Under the pieces are notes generated by a model that was given only the letters and a program-made list of their open reading frames with translations, was not told where the DNA came from and did not search any database. The translations under genes were made by a program, and so were the position numbers. Positions 8,121 to 41,391 of a DNA stretch of 64,000 bases are shown here, piece by piece (position 1 is the stretch's first letter; each line of letters begins with the position of its first letter). Location: contig JAMOTD010000017.1 in NCBI GenBank assembly GCA_027068415.1, positions 3,074 to 67,073 on the forward strand, read 5' to 3'. Source of the stretch: Desulfurobacteriaceae bacterium (GTDB taxonomy: Bacteria > Aquificota > Aquificia > Desulfurobacteriales > Desulfurobacteriaceae).

Positions 8121-9206
8121 TTAACCTACCACAAACCTAACGGTAAAGAGCTTCTTGAAATCGTCCTTAACGTCAAATGAAATTCTCTTTCTTATTCCCA
8201 CCTTTCGCAGGTTTGCGTTAACGTCTTCTGTAATCGCGTTTGTTCCTTCTGTTCCGCGGAATGAGAGGAACTTTACGCTACTTCCCTTCGGGAGTTTAAA
8301 AGTCTTATCTGAGGAGACCTCTACTTTCCTGCCGTTAATGAGGAGCTGGGTACTGTAGCTAACCCTCGGCTCAAGGAACTCGTTTAGGTTTTTAAGCACC
8401 GTGTCAATTGAGGGCTCGGTCTCAACCCCGTGGAGCTTAAAGAACTCCCTAATCATGAGGATGTGGAACTTTACCTTGTGGTAGAGGTCCGGGAGCTGTT
8501 TTGAGACCTCAAGGCAGATAGCAGGAACCGAGCACTCCTTCAGGCAGAAGTAGGTAAGGGATTTCCTCTGCTCCGGGTGTTTTGTATTTTTTCTGAAGGT
8601 ATGGGTGTTAAAGACGGGGATTTTCCATTTTTTTCTATCTATCAGGGCATTTACCCTCTTTGAAACCGTTTTTGCAGCTTTCCCGAGCTCTATACCTTTG
8701 TAGACTTCCTCGTCTATTACGATGCACTGCCCCCAAGCCTTTGGGTTTACCGAGTGGAAGCCGAACCCGTCGTGAAGGGTTAGAAGCAAATCGGGTTTGT
8801 AGTTCTTTATTAACTCTTTCAGCTTTTTGACTTTAGGGTAGTCGGGGTCTTTTTTTGAAATGTGTGCAAACTTCCTGTTCATGTCCCCGTTGTAGCCCCG
8901 CCTGTTTGTTAGGATTGAGACGAAGTTCGTTCTCGGGGCTATGAGGAGCTCCCCCTTCTTTACCTTCAGGTGTCTTAAAATCTCCGCCGCCTTGTAGGCT
9001 CCCGGCTCGTTCCCGTGAATTCCCCCGACTATTAAGACTCTTCCTCCCTTCTCCCTGCCGGTAATTAGGCTCTCCTGGAAGGGAAGGGGAGGGAGCTCTA
9101 TGACTGCATTAACTCCTCCTGCAGAGGCCTTCCCCGTTTTCAGAAGCGAAAGGACTCCTCCCGCCCCCAGCAGTTTTATAAATTCTCTTCTCCGATAATT
9201 TTCCAT
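8121..9206 (-). CDS. M14-like zinc carboxypeptidase with Tat signal (Csd4/Pgp1-like candidate)
   Basis: Twin-arginine leader MENYRRREFIKLLGAGGVLSL. Zn-binding motif IVGGIHGNEPGAYKAAE. Further His/Glu motifs downstream (LLLTLHDGFGFH). Confidence 0.55.
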   Translation of the reverse strand: MENYRRREFIKLLGAGGVLSLLKTGKASAGGVNAVIELPPLPFQESLITGREKGGRVLIVGGIHGNEPGAYKAAEILRHLKVKKGELLIAPRTNFVSILTNRRGYNGDMNRKFAHISKKDPDYPKVKKLKELIKNYKPDLLLTLHDGFGFHSVNPKAWGQCIVIDEEVYKGIELGKAAKTVSKRVNALIDRKKWKIPVFNTHTFRKNTKHPEQRKSLTYFCLKECSVPAICLEVSKQLPDLYHKVKFHILMIREFFKLHGVETEPSIDTVLKNLNEFLEPRVSYSTQLLINGRKVEVSSDKTFKLPKGSSVKFLSFRGTEGTNAITEDVNANLRKVGIRKRISFDVKDDFKKLFTVRFVVG

Positions 9207-15843: not shown

Positions 15844-18003
15844 TTATTGTTCTTCTTTCCTGAGTTTTCGGGCAAGTCTTACCAGGTTCCTTAAGGCGGG
15901 GATTACCTCTTCCCAGCGCCTCGTCTTCAAACCGCAGTCGGGGTTAACCCAGAACTTCTCTTTTGGAATTACCCTGAGAGCTCTCTCAACAATCTCGGCC
16001 ATCTCCTCAACCGAGGGGACGTAAGGGGTGTGAATGTCCCAGACTCCCAGACCTATCTGCCTGTCAAAGTTAACCTTTTCAAAGGCTTCAATTATGTCCC
16101 CCTTGGAGCGGGTGGCCTCAATTGAGATAACGTCAAAATCCATCTGGAGTATGTACTCCATAATCTCGCCGAACTCGGAGTAGCACATGTGGGTGTGGAT
16201 TTGGGTTTCGGGCTTTACACAGCTGTGGCAGAGCCTGAAGGCCTTTACCGCCCAGTCAAAGTACTCGTCCCACTCCCTCTTCTTTAGGGGGGCCTTCTCC
16301 CTTATCGCCGGCTCGTCTATCTGGACGATTTTTATCCCCTCCTTCTCGTAGTCGGCAATTTCATCTTTCAGGGCAAGGGCAATCTGGTATGCAACTTCCC
16401 TTATAGGAATGTCTTCCCTTACAAAGCTCCAGGCTATTATCGTTGTGGGTCCGGTCAGCATTCCCTTTACGGGCTTCTCTGTAAGGCTCTGGGCAAAGGC
16501 AATCTCCTTAACCGTCATTTGGCCGTCCCTTTCAACGTCTCCGTAGATAATCGGAGGCCTGTAGCACCTTGTTCCGTAGGAGATTACCCAGCCGTTTCCG
16601 GTTGTTGCTATTCCCTTCATCTTCTCTGCAAAGAACTCAACCATGTCGCTGCGCTCAAACTCCCCGTGAACGAGAACGTCAAGGCCGAGCTCCTTCTGAA
16701 TCTCTATCGCCTTTGCTATCTCGCCCCTTATGAATGTCTCGTAGTCCTCCTGAGAGAGCTTCCCTTTCTTGTAGAAGAGCCTAACTCTTCTAACCTCTTC
16801 CGTCTGGGGGAAGGAGCCGATTGTCGTTGTTGGGAAAAGGGGAAGGTTTAAGACCTCTTTCTGAATCTTTTCCCTCTCGGGGTAGGCCGGTCTCCTTACG
16901 AAGTCCTCCTCCTTTAAGGAGGCCACCCTTTCCCTTACCCTTTTAATCTCTCCGAAGGAGCTCTCAAGCCCTTCTACCCACTCTTTCGCCCTCTCCTCTT
17001 TGCCCTGTAGGAGCTCTGCCAAAAGGCTCAGCTCCTCCAACTTCTCCTGTGCAAAGGCAACCTTCTTTAAGAGTTCCTGGGGCAGAGTAGCTCCGGAGAG
17101 GCTTACGGGAAGGTGGAAGAGGGGAGCGGCGTTGGTTATTACGGTTTTAAACCTGCCTGAGAGCTCTTTTAGAACTCGGGCGGTTTTAAAGAGGTCGTTT
17201 CTCCAGACGTTCCTTCCGTCAACAACCCCCGCAAAGAGGGTTTTGTCGCTCTCAATCTCCTTTAACTGTTTAAGGTTCCCCCCTCCGTCGTGGATGAGGT
17301 CAACTCCGACTCCGCTTACCGGGAGCTCAAAAACTTCACTCAGCCTGTCCACTCCCGCGTAGTAGGTAAAGAGGTTTATCGGGATTTCCGCTTTTGAGAG
17401 CTCCCGGTAGACCTCCTTTAAAACCTCCCACTCCTTGTCTGAGAGCTCTAATGCCAGTGCCGGCTCGTCAATGTGGAGGCTCTTAAACTCCATCTCCTTT
17501 GCAAACTGAACCGTTAGGCGGGCAACCTCCAGTACCCTCTCCTTAAACTCCTCTTCCTTAACCTCTTTAGAGAGCTTTACGAAGGTGAAGGGGCCGATTA
17601 GGTAGGCGTTTTCCTCTCCCTTTTTCCACTTGGGGTAGGGGAGGTTTGAGAGGGAGAGCTCTTTTCCGGAAAAGTCGGGAACGAGGTAGTGGTAGTTGGT
17701 GTTAAACCACTTCTTCATCTGGAGGGCGTTTTTGCCCCTGCAGAGCTCAAAGTAGTCGGGGAGGCTTTCGGCCCTGTAGAGGCCGAAGAGGACTGCCTGG
17801 TCAACCATGTGGTCGTAGAGGGTCATCTCTGAACTCGGGTGGCCGCCGACTCTGGCGTAGGCCTCCTCCCTCTTTTTGTTGAGCTCCTCAATTCCCTTAA
17901 GGAGCTCCCCTTCTGTCAGCTTTCCCGACCAGTAGCCCTCTACCAGTCTCTTAAACTCCCTGTTCTTCCCGAGCCTCGGGAAGCCGTAAGCGTAGGTTTT
18001 CAT
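15844..18003 (-). CDS. metE: Cobalamin-independent methionine synthase
   Basis: MKTYAYGFPRLGKNREFK N-terminus and two Meth_synt halves (TTTIGSFPQT, HTHMCYS, NPDCGLKTR). ATG 18003 is preceded by GGAGGT. The longer listed ORF extension runs through the leader RNA. Confidence 0.9.
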   Translation of the reverse strand: MKTYAYGFPRLGKNREFKRLVEGYWSGKLTEGELLKGIEELNKKREEAYARVGGHPSSEMTLYDHMVDQAVLFGLYRAESLPDYFELCRGKNALQMKKWFNTNYHYLVPDFSGKELSLSNLPYPKWKKGEENAYLIGPFTFVKLSKEVKEEEFKERVLEVARLTVQFAKEMEFKSLHIDEPALALELSDKEWEVLKEVYRELSKAEIPINLFTYYAGVDRLSEVFELPVSGVGVDLIHDGGGNLKQLKEIESDKTLFAGVVDGRNVWRNDLFKTARVLKELSGRFKTVITNAAPLFHLPVSLSGATLPQELLKKVAFAQEKLEELSLLAELLQGKEERAKEWVEGLESSFGEIKRVRERVASLKEEDFVRRPAYPEREKIQKEVLNLPLFPTTTIGSFPQTEEVRRVRLFYKKGKLSQEDYETFIRGEIAKAIEIQKELGLDVLVHGEFERSDMVEFFAEKMKGIATTGNGWVISYGTRCYRPPIIYGDVERDGQMTVKEIAFAQSLTEKPVKGMLTGPTTIIAWSFVREDIPIREVAYQIALALKDEIADYEKEGIKIVQIDEPAIREKAPLKKREWDEYFDWAVKAFRLCHSCVKPETQIHTHMCYSEFGEIMEYILQMDFDVISIEATRSKGDIIEAFEKVNFDRQIGLGVWDIHTPYVPSVEEMAEIVERALRVIPKEKFWVNPDCGLKTRRWEEVIPALRNLVRLARKLRKEEQ

Positions 18004-18169
18004 GGGTTTACCTCCTGCGGCGTTTTTGTTTAAACGCCTGCAGGCGGTTCTTGAGGCGGGAAAAAGAGGAGGCAAAAAAGACAAAAGTAGCCCCTTCTCC
18101 TTTCCCGCGTCCCGAACCCCCGCAGGACGCGAAGGGGCAGGCTTTCGCCCGCCCATCTCGGGCCGGTCT

Positions 18170-18332
18170 CCCGGCTCGCAGGCTTCTTTTGTGCCGTAAA
18201 CCTTCCCGGAGCGGTGGCTCTTAACCTCTCCGCTCCAGTGGTTTACAGCCTTTTTAATGCCTGCTCACGGTTGCGAGGACAGCGCCGGACTTTCACCGGA
18301 CTTCCCGTTCACCCGAGACGGGGCAATTTTAG
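18170..18332 (-). promoter_or_regulatory. Cobalamin (B12) riboswitch in the metE leader
   Basis: The minus strand reads ...GGGTGAACGGGAAGTCCGGTGAAAGTCCGGCGCTGTCCTCGCAACCGTGAGC...GAGCCACCGCTCCGGGAAGG. This covers the conserved core and a B12-box-like GCCAC(C)G element, upstream of a B12-independent methionine synthase. Confidence 0.8.
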
Positions 18333-19864: not shown

Positions 19865-20371
19865 ATGGCAGAGACCGTAACTCTTAAGGGAAATCCCGTA
19901 GTTCTTGCAGGACCTACGCTCAGCGTGGGAGACGACGCTCCCGTTGCCTGCGTGGTTAAGAGCGACCTCTCCGAAAAGGCTGTGGGCGGAAAGAAGGAGA
20001 AAGTTCAGGTAATTATTACCGTTCCTTCACTTGACACCCCCGTTTGTGAAACCGAAACGAGGAAGTTTAACGAAATCCTTAAGGAGCTCCCCGTTGACGC
20101 AACAGTAGTTTCAATGGACTTACCCTTTGCAGAGAAGAGGTTCTGTGAGAGCTTTAACGTCGGGAACGTTGACGTTGCCTCCGACTTCAGGTACAGGGAC
20201 ATGGAAAAGTACGGAGTTTTAATCGCCGAAAGCGCACTCAAAGGCCTCCTTGCAAGGGCTGTTTTCGTAGTTGATAAGAACGGTAAAGTTGCCTACAAGC
20301 AGCTGGTTCCCGAAATTACTCAGGAGCCCAACTACGACGAGGTTGTAGAGGCGATAAAAAAGTTAATTTAA
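19865..20371 (+). CDS. tpx: Thiol peroxidase (atypical 2-Cys peroxiredoxin)
   Basis: VPSLDTPVCETETRKFN and LPFAEKRFC motifs. The 168-aa length fits. Confidence 0.85.
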   Translation: MAETVTLKGNPVVLAGPTLSVGDDAPVACVVKSDLSEKAVGGKKEKVQVIITVPSLDTPVCETETRKFNEILKELPVDATVVSMDLPFAEKRFCESFNVGNVDVASDFRYRDMEKYGVLIAESALKGLLARAVFVVDKNGKVAYKQLVPEITQEPNYDEVVEAIKKLI

Positions 20372-20627
20372 CGCTCCGGGGGCTCTCTGTCCCCTTCCTT
20401 GATAATCGGGCAGAAATTTTGTATTCCCCTTTTGGGGCTCCCCTTCCCGAAGAGAAAATTCATTCTCTCTTCGCCTAAGGGGTTTTTTAAACTTTGGTTT
20501 AATAGATTTCTGATAAAAGTTTGAAAATCTAATTTCTTATGGAAGAGGGGAACTTGACGAACTCCTCCCTTGAGGTAGACCCCTTCCTGTTGATTAAATA
20601 ACTTTCCATCCCCAATAGGGAGGAAGA

Positions 20628-22922
20628 ATGAACAGAATAACCGTAGTGAAGAGGAAAGGGGTAAGGGAGCCTCTCAACATTGAGAAAATCAGGAAGGTAA
20701 TCAACTGGGCTGCCGAAGGGCTGGACTTAAACCCCTTAAAGCTTGAGGCAAAGCTGAAACTCCACTTCTTTAACGGGATTACGACCCGCCAGATTCACGA
20801 GGCCGTTGTAAATACGGCACTCCATCTTACTACCCCAGAAGAGCCCGACTGGAGAATCTTAGCCGGAAGGCTCTTCATCTTTAACCTCTACAAAGAGGTT
20901 GCAATCAGGAGGGGAACCAGCAAGCTGGCCTACGTCGGCGGCGGAGAGGAGTACCTCAAGGTAGTTAAAGACTTAATAGAGAAAGGCCTCTACACTCCGG
21001 AGCTCCTTGAATCCTACACCGAAGAGGAGATTATTGAGGCCGGCGACTACCTGAAGCTCCGGTACGACTTCCTCTACGACTACGCAGGGGCAAACCTTCT
21101 TGCAAAAAGGTACCTCTGCGTCTACGAGGATTTCCCCATAGAGCTCCCTCAAGAGATGTACATGACAATTGCCCTGATGCTTGCAAAGAACGAACCGAAG
21201 GAAGTGAGGCTCAAAACTGCAAAGAAGTTTTACGACCTGATAGCCGGGAAGAAGCTTTCACTTGCCACCCCGATTCTCATTAACCTGCGCCGTCCCAACG
21301 GAAACCTCTCCTCCTGCTTCATTACGGCAATGGACGACAACCTTGACTCAATCATGTACACGGCAAACCAGGTTGCCCAGATTTCAAAGAGAGCAGGAGG
21401 AGTTGGGGTTAACCTCTCAAGAATCAGGGCTCAGGGCTCCTGGATTAAAAAGGTTTTCGGGGCAAGCGGCGGAATAGTTCCCTGGACCAAAATCCTTAAC
21501 GACGTTGCAGTTGCGGTTAACCAGGAGGGCAAAAGGGCAGGTGCGGTTACCGTGGCCCTTGACGTCTGGCACCTTGACATCTACGACTTCTTGGAACTTA
21601 AGACCGAAAACGGAGACCTAAGGCGCAAGGCCTTTGACATCTTCCCTCAGGTGGTAATCCCTGACCTCTTTATGGAGAGGGTAAAGTTCAACCAGGATTG
21701 GCTCTTAGTTGACCCCTACGAAGTTGAGAGGAAGTTCGGCTACAAACTCTACGAGCTGTGGGGAGACGAGTTTGAGAAGGCCTACATCCACATTGAGGCC
21801 GAGGCCGAAAAACTGAAGTTAAAGAAAAGGGTTAGGGCCAGAGAGCTCCTTAAGGAGATTTTGAAAACGCAAGTTGCAACCGGCCTGCCCTACATCTTTT
21901 TCAAGGACACCGCCAACCGCCTCAACCCCTTAAAGCACGACGGCTACATAGGCAACGGAAACCTCTGTATGGAGAGTTTCTCAAACTTTAAGCCCTCTAA
22001 AGGCTTTAAGACCTACGTGAAGGACGGTAAAATCATTAACGAGATAGAAGAGCCGGGGCTCGTCCACACATGTAACCTCCTCTCAATAAACCTTGCGAAC
22101 ATAGAAAACGATGCTGAGCTTGAGGAGGCAGTAAGGACTGCAGTAAGAATCCTTGATAACACCATAGAGCTAACCTCTCCTCCGATTTTAGAGAGTAAGT
22201 TCCACAACGACCGCTACAGAACAATAGGCATTGGGACACTGGGCCTTGCCGACTATCTTGCAAAGAGGGAAATTCCCTACGGAAGGCAGTCTTTGAAAGT
22301 TATTGACGAGCTCTACGAGAAAATTGCCTACTACGGAATTGACGAGAGCATTAACCTTGCTAAAGAAAGGGGAGTCTTCCCTGCCTACGAGGGCTCAGAC
22401 TGGAGCAAGGGAATAGTAATAGGTAAAGATGCCGAGTATTTAAGCGAAAAGACTACCCTGAAAGAGAAGTGGTTGGAGCTCCTTGCCAAGCTCAAGAAGT
22501 ACGGAATAAGGAACGGCCAGCTCTTTGCAATTGCTCCAAACACCAGCTCCGGCCTCCTTCAGGGTGCAACCCCCGGAGTTCTTCCGCCCTTCAGCAGGTT
22601 CTACATTGACAAGAACCAGAAGCAGGCCGTCCCGATTTGCCCTCCCTACATTAAGGAGAGGTTCTGGTTCTACAGGGAAAGCAAGTTTATGGACCAGAAG
22701 GAAGTTATAGACGTTATCTCAACTATTCAGAAGTGGGTTGATAGCGGAATTTCAATGGAGCTCCTATTCAACCTCAACCTCGGAATAAGGGCTAAAGACA
22801 TCTACGAAACCGTCCTCTACGCTTGGGAGAAGGGGATTAAGACCATTTACTACGTCAGGACTATTCAGAAAGATAGTCAAGGAGTTCTCAAGAAAGAGGA
22901 GTGTATCGCCTGCGCCAGCTAA
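20628..22922 (+). CDS. nrdA: Class I ribonucleoside-diphosphate reductase alpha subunit
   Basis: N-terminal ATP-cone (VVKRKGVREPLNIEKIRKVI), LSSCFI, NLCMES active-site segment, and C-terminal CIACAS Cys pair. Confidence 0.9.
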   Translation: MNRITVVKRKGVREPLNIEKIRKVINWAAEGLDLNPLKLEAKLKLHFFNGITTRQIHEAVVNTALHLTTPEEPDWRILAGRLFIFNLYKEVAIRRGTSKLAYVGGGEEYLKVVKDLIEKGLYTPELLESYTEEEIIEAGDYLKLRYDFLYDYAGANLLAKRYLCVYEDFPIELPQEMYMTIALMLAKNEPKEVRLKTAKKFYDLIAGKKLSLATPILINLRRPNGNLSSCFITAMDDNLDSIMYTANQVAQISKRAGGVGVNLSRIRAQGSWIKKVFGASGGIVPWTKILNDVAVAVNQEGKRAGAVTVALDVWHLDIYDFLELKTENGDLRRKAFDIFPQVVIPDLFMERVKFNQDWLLVDPYEVERKFGYKLYELWGDEFEKAYIHIEAEAEKLKLKKRVRARELLKEILKTQVATGLPYIFFKDTANRLNPLKHDGYIGNGNLCMESFSNFKPSKGFKTYVKDGKIINEIEEPGLVHTCNLLSINLANIENDAELEEAVRTAVRILDNTIELTSPPILESKFHNDRYRTIGIGTLGLADYLAKREIPYGRQSLKVIDELYEKIAYYGIDESINLAKERGVFPAYEGSDWSKGIVIGKDAEYLSEKTTLKEKWLELLAKLKKYGIRNGQLFAIAPNTSSGLLQGATPGVLPPFSRFYIDKNQKQAVPICPPYIKERFWFYRESKFMDQKEVIDVISTIQKWVDSGISMELLFNLNLGIRAKDIYETVLYAWEKGIKTIYYVRTIQKDSQGVLKKEECIACAS

Positions 22923-32771: not shown

Positions 32772-32784
32772 TTTTTTTTATTCC

Positions 32785-32846: not shown

Positions 32847-33218
32847 ATGGCAAGCCTTGACGAGCTCATGAGGGCTGTTCAGGAGAAGTACACTGAAAAA
32901 GAAATCCCCGAATTCAGGGTTGGAGACACCGTTAGAGTTCACGTTAAAGTAAAAGAGGGCGATAAGGAGAGGATTCAGGCCTTTGAAGGTGTCGTAATCA
33001 GGAAGAGGGGAAGCGGAACGGACGCCACCTTTACCGTAAGGAAGGTCTCCTACGGAATCGGAATTGAGAGGACTTTCCCCCTCTACGCTCCCGTTGTTGA
33101 GAAAATTGAAGTCCTCAAGCGCGGTATCGTAAGAAGGGCAAGGCTCTACTACCTCAGGGAGCGTAAAGGTAAGGCTGCCCGTATTAAAGAGAAGAAGGAG
33201 TGGATGACAAAGAAGTAA
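32847..33218 (+). CDS. rplS: 50S ribosomal protein L19
   Basis: [32 protein letters not shown]...RRARLYYLR. Confidence 0.9.
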
Positions 33219-33904
33219 TCCTTGAGATAGAAAAGAGCCTCTGGAAGAAGGGCTACTTTCTCGTTGCGGGGATTGACGAGGCCGGGAGAGGGCCCCTGGC
33301 CGGGCCGGTTGTGGCCGCGGCGGTGGTCTTCCCCGAAAGCGTCAATCCTTTTTTATTTAAGGACTCAAAGAAGCTCACTCCCTCTCAGAGGCTGGAGCTC
33401 TTTAAGAGAATCTACTCCGAAGCCCTTGCCGTAGGCGTAGGCTTTGCCGACCCTTTGGAAATAGACGAAATTAACATATACAGAGCTACGATTTTAGCGG
33501 CCGAGAGGGCGATTTCGGAGCTCCCCTTCACTCCCCACTTCCTCATAACCGACTACCTGAAGATTCCCTCCTTTGCGGATAGAATCCTTCCCATACCCAA
33601 GGGAGACGAGAGGAGCTTTTCCTGTGCCTGTGCAAGCGTTATTGCAAAGGTTGTGAGGGATTTTATTATGGAGGAGCTCTCAGCCCTCTTCCCCGGCTAC
33701 GGCTTTGAAAAGCATAAGGGCTATCCCACCAAAGCCCACTGCCGGGCCATTAGAGAGCTCGGAATAACCCCTATTCACAGGAGGAGTTTTGGGAAGGTCA
33801 AGGGAGAGAGGGAGAGAAGGGGAGGAGATTGCTTCCCGGCTACTAAGGAGGAAAGGCTATCGTATTATCGCCAGAAATTACGCCAGCTCCTTCGGAGAGG
33901 TTGA
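33200..33904 (+). CDS. rnhB: Ribonuclease HII
   Basis: [20 protein letters not shown], and ITPIHRRSF near the usual C-terminus. Followed by a ~35-aa basic tail that overlaps the next gene. Confidence 0.85.
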
Positions 33905-34136
33905 CGTAATCGCTTTTGAGCCTGAAAGTAAAACCCTCGTCTTCGTTGAGGTTAGGCTGAGGAAGAGTTCCGCCTTCGGTCACCCCCTTGAGACAATTGA
34001 CAATAAGAAGGTTGAAAGGATAAGGAGAACTGCCCTTTCCTTTCTTCGGGAAACGTCAGTTGAGTACGAGAGCGTCAGGTTTGACGTTGTTGCTATCACC
34101 GAAAGTAAAGTTCTCCACTTAGTTAACGCTTTTTAA
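33789..34136 (+). CDS. YraN family (UPF0102) endonuclease-like protein
   Basis: [34 protein letters not shown]...LVFVEVRLR is the YraN pattern. Confidence 0.7.
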   Translation: MGRSRERGREGEEIASRLLRRKGYRIIARNYASSFGEVDVIAFEPESKTLVFVEVRLRKSSAFGHPLETIDNKKVERIRRTALSFLRETSVEYESVRFDVVAITESKVLHLVNAF

Positions 34137-38054: not shown

Positions 38055-39092
38055 ATGATTAACGATAAGGAGTCTAAAATAAGAAAAAAGACTCTTATTC
38101 TCTTCTCTTTTATGGCGGTAGCCTTCTTAAGTACTTTTGGTTATTACAATTACGCGTTTGAGCTAAAACAGTTGGGTATATTTGAACTTTTTAGTGCCTC
38201 AATTATTGCTACTAATTTAGTCTTCTTTGTGTTTTCTAAGAATTACTCTTTCTCATCTACAGTTTTCCTTTTAGTTATTACTGCTCTTTTTATAGCTCTT
38301 TTAATTACAGGGGGAATTCATAAGACGGGAATTTTTTGGCTTTACCTCTATCCGGTTGTAACTACTTTTCTTAAAGAACCCTCTAAGGCTTTATGGTGGA
38401 ATATCTCTTTTACTGTTTTGATATTTCTGGTCTGTGTTGCTGACTATTTTGGTATTATCTCACTGCCTTACGATGAGATTACCCTTAGACAGGCAATTGT
38501 TGTTTACTTTTCCGTTCTTATTCTCTCTTACTTTTACTCCAAGCTTTCCACGGAGCTTGTAAACAGCATGAAGACCCTTGCCGTTCGCGACCCTTTAACC
38601 GGACTTTACAACAGGGCTTTTGCCCTTTCATATCTTACACAGGAGCTTGAAAAGGTAAAAAGGCGTGAGCTTAAAAATCTCTGCGTTGCCTACATTGACC
38701 TTGATAATTTTAAGCTCGTAAACGACCTTCTTGGCCACTCTGTAGGAGATAACGTTTTGAGCGATATAGGGGAGCTCCTTCGGCAGCACTTCAGAAAGGG
38801 CGATGTCGTTGCAAGAATAGGGGGAGACGAGTTCATAATAATCTTTACAAACTGCGACCCCAAAAGAATTTCAAGAAGGTTGGAGTTCTTAAGGAAGAAA
38901 ATAGAGAACAAGTTTAAAAAGTTCGGTTTATCAATGAGTTTCGGTCTTGCTGAAGCCCCTAAAGATGCTCTTCTGCCCAGCTTCCTCGTTAGAATTGCCG
39001 ATGAGAGAATGTACAGGAACAAGAAAGCCCGTAAGATGGTAAGAGGGAGGGTAGAGGGCCTTAAAGAGGCCCCCGAGGAGATTTCTGACTAA
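38055..39092 (+). CDS. Diguanylate cyclase (GGDEF) with multi-TM N-terminal sensor region
   Basis: About 5-6 hydrophobic helices, then RDPLTGLYNR, DLDNFKLVND and ARIGGDEFIIIF. Confidence 0.85.
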   Translation: MINDKESKIRKKTLILFSFMAVAFLSTFGYYNYAFELKQLGIFELFSASIIATNLVFFVFSKNYSFSSTVFLLVITALFIALLITGGIHKTGIFWLYLYPVVTTFLKEPSKALWWNISFTVLIFLVCVADYFGIISLPYDEITLRQAIVVYFSVLILSYFYSKLSTELVNSMKTLAVRDPLTGLYNRAFALSYLTQELEKVKRRELKNLCVAYIDLDNFKLVNDLLGHSVGDNVLSDIGELLRQHFRKGDVVARIGGDEFIIIFTNCDPKRISRRLEFLRKKIENKFKKFGLSMSFGLAEAPKDALLPSFLVRIADERMYRNKKARKMVRGRVEGLKEAPEEISD

Positions 39093-40147
39093 ATCTCATC
39101 CCACCCTTCAACGGCACTTGCCTGGTTGTAGCTGGTTACCGTAGCCTCAAAGAAGTTTGCCTTAACGTTCCCTTCTCCGCCGGTATCTGCAATCCTCTCA
39201 AGGTGCTCGTAGGGGTTGGGTCTATCGGGGAAGATTGGCTCAAGGCCGAGGGCTTTTAACCTCTTATTTGCAATGTAGTAAGTGTAATCCTCAATTGATT
39301 GTTCATTCATTCCCAAGATTTTGTTGCCGATTACCTTCTTGCTGAACCTCTGCTCTTGGTCAACGGCGATTTTGAACATCTTGTAGATTTTGTCTTTTGT
39401 CAGGTACTTCTTAAATCCTTCGTCGGTTAGGTCCTTCATAAAGTGCTCAAAAAGGATGACGTGGGTTAGCTCGTCCCTGTTGATGTACCTGATTATGTCG
39501 GCAGTCCCCTGCATCAAGTTCCTTGAGGCGAGGTTGTAGAAGAACATGAAGCCGTTGTAGAAGTAGAGTCCCTCAAGGAGGTAGTTTCCGATTAAAACCT
39601 CCCCGTAGTTCTCCATAGTGGGCTCTTCAAGGAACTTCTGATAGATATCTGCAATGTACTTGTTCCTCTCAAAGAGAATCGGGTCTTTCTTCCACCAGTA
39701 GTAAACCTCCTCCCTCTTCTCTGCCGGAACAACGCTCTCAATTGTGTAGCCGTAGCTCTGGGAGTGGATTGCCTCCTGATAAGCGTGGATTGAGAGGTCA
39801 ATCGTAATTTCGGGAGCTTTAACGTAGGCGGCGATATTGGGAATGTTTGTTGTCTGAATTGAGTCAAGGAAAACGAGGAATGAGAGGATTTCGTCGTAGG
39901 CCTGTCTCTCGTCGTCGGTTAACTCTTTATAGTCCTGAACGTCCTGAGTAAGGTCAACGGTCTCGGGTATCCAGAAGTTGGCCATCATTACCCTGTAGAG
40001 CTTCGGTGCCCACTCGTACTTAATTACGTTCAGGTTGAAGATGTTTGTCGTATCCCCGTGGAGGATACCCCTCTTTGCCGGGTCGTCGTTCCCCTCGGGG
40101 TTAAAAATCGGACGGGGTTTCATTAACTCTTTTCTTATGTCTCCCAT
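39089..40147 (-). CDS. nrdB: Class I ribonucleotide reductase beta subunit
   Basis: FWIPETVDLTQD, FLDSIQT, HAYQEAIHSQSY, and EGLYFYNGF...RDELTH di-iron ligand motifs. No intein. Confidence 0.9.
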   Translation of the reverse strand: MGDIRKELMKPRPIFNPEGNDDPAKRGILHGDTTNIFNLNVIKYEWAPKLYRVMMANFWIPETVDLTQDVQDYKELTDDERQAYDEILSFLVFLDSIQTTNIPNIAAYVKAPEITIDLSIHAYQEAIHSQSYGYTIESVVPAEKREEVYYWWKKDPILFERNKYIADIYQKFLEEPTMENYGEVLIGNYLLEGLYFYNGFMFFYNLASRNLMQGTADIIRYINRDELTHVILFEHFMKDLTDEGFKKYLTKDKIYKMFKIAVDQEQRFSKKVIGNKILGMNEQSIEDYTYYIANKRLKALGLEPIFPDRPNPYEHLERIADTGGEGNVKANFFEATVTSYNQASAVEGWDEI

Positions 40148-40157
40148 GGAGCCTCCT

Positions 40158-41221
40158 CTATGTCGGTCTGAACGTTCCTATTATAACCCCGTCCCTCTCT
40201 TCCTGTTTTTCAAATGTGATTTCCGGGTGGTTGGGGAGCTCCTCCTCTATGAACCTTTTCAAGTATTCGTTTGCTTCCTCAGTGCTTATGTTCAAATTCC
40301 ACCTCGGCAGCCAGCTTCCGATTATAAGGCCGGTTTTTACTTCTCTATCTCTATCTATCCAGGAAAGGAGCGCTTTAAGCAATTTAGTTTTAAACTTCTC
40401 ATAGTTCGCTTCTATATTTTGAGACTGAGGAGAGTTGGTCCCTAATTTTTCCAGAAACTCATCAAGTTCCCATTTATAAAGGATGCTATCATAAGGGTTT
40501 TTAGAGTCGTGAAATCGTTTTAGATAATTTAAATCTTCGGACTTGATGATTTGTTTTACTGTTTCTAACTTATCGTTTAGCAGATAATGTATGGAATTTT
40601 TTATAGCTTTTTCAATTTGGAAGTCAAAATAGAGTATTTCGTTGTTTCTTAAGGTTGAAAGGTAAATTGAATTAACTCTTTCTCTAAATGTTGCCAATAT
40701 AATGGGTAATCCTGTGTGTTCTTTAAGCCAAACTATAAGGGGATATAAATCTATGTCGCAGGTTGCTATTACCACTCTGTCTGCTGGAATTTTCTTAATT
40801 GTTAAGTCTTCTATAGCCGATAGTGCAAGCGCAAGGTCTGCCGAATTTCTGGCTTTTTTCTTTTTTTGTGGGGAATGAACGGTGTAAAGGGTGTTGCTCC
40901 CACTTGGTGCAGTTGGGTAGGAAGGCCGGGAGAGAACCTTTGGGCGTGGGGTAAGTTTTCGTACTCTGCAAATACTTTAAAGCATAGAAGGTGAAAGTCG
41001 GAATTTGTAAAGGACATATTTGTTCTTATATCCCGGATAAAGTTGAGAAGGGTCTCTCTGAGAAGAGAAAACTGGAAGAGAGTTAAGTCTTCATTAGCAG
41101 GTAGTTGAAGGGCTGAGAGAAAAGCCCCGTAAATGTTGTCAAAATCCACGTATACAGCTACTCTTGAGATAATGGCCAATTCCCCCTCAATAAATAGTAG
41201 GGGAGAGGAACCTCCCCCCAA
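40158..41221 (-). CDS. NYN/LabA-like (PIN-like nuclease fold) protein with C-terminal extension, split by a -1 frame change at an A_AAA_AAG heptamer
   Basis: The N-part ORF (40811..41221) has VAVYVDFDNIYG. After the poly-A tract, the -1 frame reads KARNSADLALALSAIEDLTIKKIPADRVVIATCDIDLYPLIVWLKEHTGLPIILATF, which is the second half of the NYN fold, and continues to 40158. Confidence 0.6.
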
Positions 41222-41391
41222 TAGTTCGGTAATATTTGTAGCAATAGATAGTGGTGAGGGGTTAGCCCCCTCGGAATAGTTTGTGGGGAGGTGGGCTCCC
41301 CGGTAATAGTTTTTAATATCTTCCTGCTTAGGAATAATATACCTAATTTAGCCGAATTAGGTTTAAAAATTTTTAATTTTGTGGGGTAATT

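Follow-up and report, generated by a model that had tools for sequence, protein, structure and literature searches.

The window analysed here, a 64,000-nucleotide stretch of a metagenome-assembled contig from a bacterium of the family Desulfurobacteriaceae (GCA_027068415.1, JAMOTD010000017.1), carries on its minus strand a gene for a NYN (PIN-like) nuclease-like protein that is split between two reading frames at an adenine tract. In near-identical contigs this tract contains seven, eight or nine adenines (A7, A8 and A9), and only A8 leaves the gene as a single open reading frame (ORF). Because the tract is polymorphic in near-identical contigs while the neighbouring runs are constant, we favour, with moderate confidence, a locus of the phase-variable type, in which a hypermutable homopolymer tract generates heritable ON and OFF alleles, the window holding an OFF allele, over a recoding signal.

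The frame break and its alleles

On the minus strand of the window the frame break reads ...TTC ATT CCC CAC AAA AAA AGA AAA AAG CCA GAA ATT CGG..., that is, CAC-A7-G-A6-GCC. The heptamer AAAAAAG has the phase A_AAA_AAG in the frame of the upstream reading frame, ORF1 (Table 1), which continues past it as PEIRQTLRLHYRL, with 13 sense codons before the stop at the 14th (40813..40811). From the junction, the -1 frame (ORF2) reads GCC AGA AAT TCG GCA GAC (ARNSAD...), translated as ARNSADLALALSAIEDL and, further on, CDIDLYP. A previous reading of the window, made from its letters only (hereafter, the sequence-only reading), had reported this frame break and the heptamer, and the minus-strand sequence and the ORF boundaries confirm both; its statement that tandem slippage on A_AAA_AAG leads into the productive frame, with GCC as the next codon, also proved correct when the codons were read.

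Exact-protein look-ups yielded 12 loci (11 distinct records, L012 and L017 being one contig) that are 99.2-100% identical to the window and come from MEGAHIT-style ENA contigs, JGI, Logan and NCBI metagenome-assembled genomes (MAGs). A 27-nt pattern beside the tract, scanned against the metagenome contigs of JGI, returned only one contig, which was already known. Eight records have A7 (the window, L009, L010, L011, L013, L015, L016 and L018), L004 alone has A8, and A9 occurs in three distinct records (L005, L012 and L014). A7 and A9 are out of frame in opposite senses. In the A8 allele of L004, which is 99.6% identical to the window, the sequence is CAC AAA AAA AAG AAA AAA GCC, and the gene is a single ORF encoding HKKKKKARNSADL (P0001). 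The next lineage, represented by L006 and L007 (~93% nucleotide identity), is also in frame and has an interrupted run, TAC AAG AAA AAG AAA AAA GCC.

The variation is confined to the first A run (40861..40867), the G-A6-G of the heptamer being invariant in all related contigs. In comparisons of 3.4 kb (L004) and 6.6 kb (L005), the tract is the sole coding indel, and the comparison runs, namely, the adjacent A6, a C7, a G7 and the remaining readable runs of 6 bases (two were unreadable in some loci), are constant. One haplotype, as defined by single-nucleotide polymorphisms (SNPs), occurs with both A7 (the window, L011, L013 and L016) and A9 (L012), and another haplotype also occurs with A7 (L015) and A9 (L014); A7 and A9 alleles are 1-2 SNPs apart over ~1.9 kb. 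The presence of A7 and A9 on identical haplotypes indicates that the tract changes faster than point substitutions accumulate, and that it has done so more than once. Additionally, three contigs match the window at 100% identity along 1.3-3.6 kb that include the tract. As a comparison of tract stability, the A7-containing gene at 8121..9206 was considered, for which too few contigs could be retrieved by exact-protein look-up.

Within the window, the heptamer AAAAAAG is depleted, with 17 occurrences against 43.9 +/- 6.3 in shuffled sequences. The heptamer by itself is thus unremarkable; the non-random part is that it coincides with a break of frame within a conserved domain. Lysine is encoded in the window by 946 AAG and 462 AAA codons, and four of the five lysine codons of the tract are AAA (P ~0.04, binomial), a weak hint that the run is not merely codon-usage noise. 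A/T runs of at least 7 bases number only seven in the 64 kb, the single T8 (32772..32779) lying directly after a tRNA-Arg gene; these few long runs and the depletion of AAAAAAG fit a genome in which slippery runs are selected against. Among the genes of the 64 kb, this is the only one that looks split or broken. A pair of overlapping ORFs at 33200..34136 was considered as a frameshift and rejected, since they are apparently two separate neighbours, RNase HII-like and YraN-like, labels that come from reading the sequences and not from a family search.

The start codon of the gene is likely the second in-frame TTG, at 41179, and not the TTG at 41221. The former is preceded by GAGGGGG, as is the TTG start of the Thermovibrio ammonificans orthologue, and the latter lies inside a leader hairpin. 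With this start, the products would be ~122 amino acids (ORF1) and ~340 amino acids (full length), instead of the 136 and ~355 amino acids given in the sequence-only reading. Public gene calls (NCBI, ENA, Logan and GEM) include only a 205-amino-acid fragment of ORF2 from GTG 40775, unnamed and with no Pfam hit, and the in-frame A8 allele has been called as 286 amino acids from an internal ATG. As the calls begin at these positions, the N-terminal half of the protein, with the NYN domain, is missed in these records, and current annotation is therefore misleading as regards this NYN family.

The encoded protein and its orthologues

The repaired protein, with both parts fused, matches the Pfam NYN family (PF01936) across the junction, over residues 20-180, with 25.1 bits (E = 2.8e-5), a small margin above the cut-off of 24.2; a precomputed PF01936 hit is also present in most orthologues. 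An AlphaFold2 model of the repaired protein is confident, with a predicted local distance difference test (pLDDT) score of 86.5, and by Foldseek its residues 1-185 match 2qip (E = 2.2e-6, template modelling (TM) score on target 0.75) and the MARF1 NYN domains 6fdl and 5yaa (TM score on target 0.67-0.76), with an identity to solved NYN domains of only 14-16%. Based on the family match and the modelled structure, the predicted fold is NYN (PIN-like), and the sequence-only reading was right in this assignment. The junction falls in the single low-confidence loop of the domain, the lysine loop, between the strand at residues 96-98 and the helix at residues 113-128.

Across 20 sequences, N112, D115, D142 and D144 never vary, and D14 is nearly invariant. 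By the motif pattern (N-terminal D, N..D and DxD), D14, N112, D115 and D142/D144 are candidate active-site residues, which may correspond to the catalytic residues of MARF1. Since N112, D115, D142 and D144 are all encoded downstream of the junction, the ORF1 product would lack most of the presumed active site. In the model, the C-terminal 90 residues form helix-helix-helix-hairpin, with weak structural matches to PadR-like winged-helix proteins (E = 0.03, probability 0.96); no Pfam family covers this part.

With the fused sequence as query, 21 relatives were obtained from 5.8 billion proteins. Eighteen are more distant orthologues (33-47% identity), among them that of a cultured isolate with a complete genome, T. 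ammonificans HB-1 (CP002444.1), and 15 of the 18 are 339-375 amino acids long. P0021 (313 amino acids) lacks N-terminal residues, P0016 (329 amino acids) and P0018 (306 amino acids) have a shortened C-terminus, and the N-terminus of P0015 is unrelated. None of the 18 is split at the lysine loop: they are single ORFs that read through it as ...NPF(I/V)..SKKKKNRNAAD..., with in-frame A5-A8 runs or interrupted runs. The gene of P0015 (L019, MAG GCA_054042685.1) was considered as a second frameshifted orthologue and rejected because its first ~330 nt, at the contig end, are unrelated to the N-terminal NYN sequence in any frame; either the gene is truncated or rearranged at L019 1..330, or the contig end is chimeric.

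The family formed by the NYN and winged-helix modules is very small, with 72 representatives at E <= 1e-3 among 1.84 billion. NCBIfam holds no family for the protein, a PDB sequence-profile search returned noise only, and PADLOC found nothing meaningful, and thus no evidence of a known defence system.

Constraint and decay

Between the window lineage and L006/L007, the ratio of nonsynonymous to synonymous substitution rates (dN/dS) is 0.17 in the part encoded by ORF1 and 0.22 in that encoded by ORF2; the C-terminal domain has a value of 0.10, and the neighbouring folC one of 0.25. For this comparison the repair base was placed one position off, which changed two codons (PQQ for PHK) with negligible effect. 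The indels between the two lineages are multiples of three. The low dN/dS values and the indels in threes indicate purifying selection over most of the divergence between the window lineage and L006/L007, and the frameshift alleles are either young or compensated.

Some signs of decay are also present. In L018 (A7, GCA_053939625.1), a TCA codon of the ORF2 frame has become TAA at ~1229 (window ~40657), and only a 74-amino-acid fragment is called. The likely TTG start of the window (41177..41179) corresponds to TCG in L006, at ~2270, and the upstream TTG 41221 is TTC there; the start in L006/L007 is either non-canonical (ATT or ATC, two to three codons downstream) or lost. The neighbouring nrdB (352 amino acids) and folC (400 amino acids) are intact in every locus that spans them whole, the former in L004, L005, L009-L012, L017 and L018.

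The helical linker (40406..40655, minus strand, residues ~183-262) is hyperdivergent between the window and L006/L007, with no blastn alignment, saturated dS and a dN of 0.39, while the genes flanking the NYN gene are ~93% identical. This suggests recombination or diversifying change in 40406..40655.

A second adenine tract in a sister lineage

In L001, L002 and L023, which are from other Desulfurobacteriaceae MAGs, the lysine loop contains an in-frame A8 (AAG AAG AAA AAA AAT). A second tract, GCAG-A(n)-TTTAG, is located near the 3′ end of the gene (L001 3970..4065), with A8 in L001 and A6 in L002 and L023, and A7 would be in frame. In all three, the last ~32 amino acids (NLVFEMEDAENGFIKGRFLKL..., homologous to the C-terminus of P0010 and forming the wing of the winged helix) are therefore in another frame, and L002 and L023 have an extra TAA within the displaced tail. 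Considering the lysine-loop tract together with this 3′ tract, poly-A frame breaks in both directions recur in the NYN gene family. Candidate reasons for the predominance of out-of-frame lengths at two tracts are selection for the OFF state in situ, drift permitted by transcriptional slippage at high temperature and small-sample chance.

Weighing the explanations

The model that we favour is as follows. The gene encodes a predicted nuclease domain of the NYN (PIN-like) type, followed by a helical linker and then by a winged-helix-like tail. It is conserved in Desulfurobacteriaceae beside the ribonucleotide reductase genes, and in this population the lysine-rich surface loop is encoded by A(n)-G-A6. 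The first A run would change in length by slipped-strand replication, outpacing point mutation, with A8 giving one intact ORF (ON) and A7, as in the window, or A9 putting everything past the loop, including N112, D115 and DxD, out of frame (OFF). The window allele would then be heritable and probably reversible, and frameshift-null or strongly hypomorphic; switching between the two states may be adaptive. Two findings point to such a locus: the coding tract sets the frame by its length (A7 and A9 out, A8 in), and near-identical strains differ in tract length, repeatedly on one and the same background and with ON and OFF alleles both present, as read from consensus contigs of partly shared samples. 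Coding poly-A tracts have been reported to mutate ~1000-fold faster than point mutation, as in inlA, which is switched on and off in this way (PMC2831843). A homopolymer phase switch was one of the explanations offered by the sequence-only reading and is the best supported of them, the polymorphic site being the first A run, one base upstream of the heptamer that it had flagged. Several points weigh against this model. All the sequences are consensus contigs of short-read metagenomes, and some of the ENA, Logan, JGI and NCBI records may share samples, which makes the allele counts non-independent. Only one of 12 distinct records, the window counted, has the in-frame allele; this rarity fits selection for the OFF state and, equally, gene loss or expression that is independent of the DNA frame. 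Additionally, A7-A9 tracts are short relative to classical contingency tracts.

Programmed -1 ribosomal frameshifting of the dnaX type, by which A_AAA_AAG would yield two products, one short and one long, at a fixed ratio, is very improbable. The junction does have an X_XXY_YYZ heptamer in the zero frame from which tandem slippage lands in the productive frame, and no heptamer is more shift-prone in E. coli than A_AAA_AAG (PMC5009743); some unprogrammed shifting is plausible. Nevertheless, the heptamer is in phase solely in the A7 allele: A8 needs no shift, and A9, in which it is out of phase, requires the opposite one. No GGAGG-like element that could serve as an upstream Shine-Dalgarno (SD) stimulator is present in TTCATTCCCCACAAAAAAAG. 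The sequence-only reading had suggested a search for a downstream stimulatory hairpin, and none was found: the 83 nt after the site have a minimum free energy of -10.1 kcal/mol at 37 C (z = +1.42; pseudoknots were not searched), and the 101-nt context also folds worse than its shuffles (z = +1.82). Relatives of the host grow near 70 C. The depletion of the motif and an ORF1 product without most catalytic residues count further against programming, and the shift site and two-frame layout are not seen in the orthologues, which are single ORFs that do not have the motif in phase, nor in the L004 allele, which with one more A is a single ORF; both observations had been named by the sequence-only reading itself as evidence against its proposal of frameshifting or slippage at A_AAA_AAG. 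Nothing indicates a selected recoding signal with a set ratio, and a leaky rescue is possible, through slippage either of the RNA polymerase or, incidentally, of ribosomes on the heptamer. Regular compensation by transcriptional slippage seems unlikely to us; in it, an RNA polymerase stuttering on the T-run template would make some A8 (or A8 +/- 3n) mRNA from A7 and A9 alleles, sufficient for the full-length protein, and the tract would be near-neutral or an expression rheostat. It would account for both out-of-frame directions being common while the rest of the gene is clean, and for the two out-of-frame lengths at the second tract of the sister lineage; the loop is disordered and its number of lysines varies among orthologues, so extra or fewer lysines would be tolerated. 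Bacterial slippage is efficient on 9A runs, such as that of Thermus thermophilus dnaX, and has been seen on 8A in some species, slippage-prone runs usually having 9 or more A/T (PMC1088944), and poly-A rescue in endosymbionts yields 12-50% corrected transcripts (PMC5009743). The window, however, has only A7, and E. coli RNA polymerase needs at least 7 T for slippage, which is marginal at 7, and more for A runs (PMC6260861). The overlapping-ORF layout with a run, as in utilised transcriptional slippage, is not conserved among the homologues, and the downstream nonsense codons in L018 and L002/L023 suggest that the downstream frame is unprotected. A version of this proposal that we likewise hold to be unlikely takes the out-of-frame alleles as the working state, with RNA polymerase slippage setting the expression of a nuclease placed among the nrd genes of a chemolithoautotroph living at ~70 C, and with tract length (A7, A8 or A9; A6 or A8 at the second tract) acting as a heritable rheostat. 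If true, Aquificota would have its first described locus of the contingency or slippage-controlled kind, and the slippage threshold would be lower in thermophiles.

Plain pseudogenisation, in which the gene is being lost with the poly-A run as its most mutable breakpoint and with no functional switching, is in our view improbable, even though out-of-frame alleles make up 11 of the 12 distinct records, additional nonsense mutations occur in L018 and L002/L023, L006/L007 have TCG in place of the likely TTG start of the window, and L019 is without the N-terminal third. Against it, dN/dS is ~0.2 in both halves, and the ORF stays open in L006/L007 across ~10% nucleotide divergence with indels in multiples of three; in addition, the intact A8 allele persists in the same population, very few changes besides the tract separate the alleles, and throughout the family the gene has kept its place in the operon. 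A sequencing or assembly artefact, by which the true gene would be a single ORF (A8) and A7 and A9 would be homopolymer errors, had also been listed by the sequence-only reading, and is quite unlikely. Homopolymers are the classic site of indel errors, the window is itself metagenome-assembled, and a one-base difference restores the frame exactly. Nevertheless, the A7, A8 and A9 calls are reproducible across assemblers and samples: differing assemblers and sources gave A7 eight times and A9 three times, counted as distinct records, the two lengths are two bases apart, and A8, the supposed true length, is the rarest. The adjacent A6, the G7, the C7 and the readable 6-base runs never vary, none of the other genes of the 64-kb window looks broken, and the tract is identical in the three contigs that match the window at 100% over 1.3-3.6 kb.

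An in-phase A_AAA_AAG at a frame break is therefore insufficient to call programmed frameshifting; here, near-identical wild alleles settled the matter. Under the favoured reading as a frameshift switch, the NYN gene gives an uncultured thermophile of a deep branch a concrete candidate for a phase-variable locus, with A7, A8 and A9 seen directly across environmental assemblies, and it belongs to a small, uncharacterised NYN and winged-helix family within or beside the ribonucleotide reductase operon.

Genomic context

The positions of the gene, its parts and the adjoining features are given in Table 1.

Table 1. Features of the NYN locus in the window (positions in the 64,000-nt stretch)
Feature	Position	Strand	Remarks
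Whole NYN + winged-helix-like gene	40158..41179	-	Two frames in the window; repaired product ~340 amino acids
ORF1, zero frame, N-terminal NYN part	40811..41179 (start in ORF list: TTG 41221)	-	Contains only the first acidic motif, YVDFDN
First A run, polymorphic tract	40861..40867	-	A7 here; A8 in frame; A9 out of frame the opposite way
A_AAA_AAG heptamer	40853..40859	-	Zero frame in the A7 allele only; G-A6-G constant across related contigs
ORF2, -1 frame, open from 40976 to the stop at 40158	40158..40976	-	Remaining NYN domain, helical linker and winged-helix-like tail
nrdB, ribonucleotide reductase small subunit	39089..40147	-	Starts 10 nt after the NYN stop; 352 amino acids
Leader, three G+C-rich hairpins	41301..41285, 41272..41256, 41219..41200 (41200..41301)	-	Last hairpin terminator-like, just before the SD sequence and start

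The NYN gene is located directly upstream of nrdB, with which it is probably co-transcribed, and is flanked by nrdA and nrdB in T. ammonificans, L001, L023 and L025 (L020 741..6140; L001 522..5126). A literature search found no paper linking a NYN protein with nrd operons. The window keeps the order NYN-nrdB-GGDEF-PfkB, and an AhpC-like ORF and a 764-amino-acid ORF, the latter likened to nrdA by its length and neighbours alone, are found ~18 kb away at 19865..22922 on the plus strand; their displacement suggests an inversion or rearrangement.

Upstream of the gene, two or three hairpins of the form GGGAGG-loop-CCTCCC were found in all five lineages examined, i.e., T. ammonificans, L001, L002 and L003 besides the window (L020 3870..3990; L001 2919..2970; L003 2893..2975). 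They are separated by an AYCAYTA-type motif, and their stems are conserved while their loops differ. Rfam gave no match in the NYN gene or its leader. These hairpins may function as a leader or attenuator, mark a processing site or form an array that binds protein. Elsewhere in the window, a cobalamin riboswitch (RF00174, 91.9 bits) is located at 18144..18331 on the minus strand, upstream of a 770-amino-acid ORF (15844..18156).

Comparison with known systems

The nearest parallel to the proposed switch is the 5′ poly-A tract of Listeria monocytogenes inlA, for which Orsi et al. (2010, PMC2831843) described a short coding A run in which a one-base change converts an intact protein into a truncated one and back. 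As in the NYN gene, recurrent independent events were found on closely related backgrounds, and the tract outpaces point mutation. Classical contingency loci, many of which switch by homopolymeric tracts, are parallels of the same kind (PMC2831843). Unlike a gene for a surface or virulence factor, the gene described here belongs to an uncultured thermophilic vent bacterium and encodes a cytoplasmic NYN nuclease-like protein in an nrd cluster. Its tract lies one third into the gene, in a conserved lysine loop, and is known here from the comparison of alleles alone.

With regard to recoding, the locus shares with E. coli dnaX, a case of programmed -1 ribosomal frameshifting, an identical heptamer that is in phase in the A7 allele. 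It differs from E. coli dnaX in lacking an SD stimulator upstream, a stem-loop downstream and conservation of the site, and in that the shifted product is the ancestral full-length protein. Like the A9 run of T. thermophilus dnaX and the slippage sites of insertion sequence (IS) elements (PMC1088944), the tract is an A run at a frame junction, here also in a thermophile, and as in the poly-A rescue of Buchnera and Blochmannia (PMC5009743), frameshifted alleles persist without further decay. In contrast to the T. thermophilus dnaX and IS-element sites, the run is A7-A9 and polymorphic in length, and the two-frame layout is not conserved in homologues.

The protein itself resembles the LabA/MARF1-type NYN proteins (PF01936; 2qip, 6fdl and 5yaa) in its predicted NYN fold and its conserved acidic motifs, and the succession of a nuclease domain and a winged-helix-type module that would bind nucleic acids recalls the domain logic of NYN proteins with LOTUS/OST-HTH domains. 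It is set apart from them by an identity of 14-16%, a marginal Pfam score and a C-terminal domain that has no Pfam family and only weak PadR-like matches, and the position within or next to nrdA-nrdB is specific to the NYN and winged-helix family described here.

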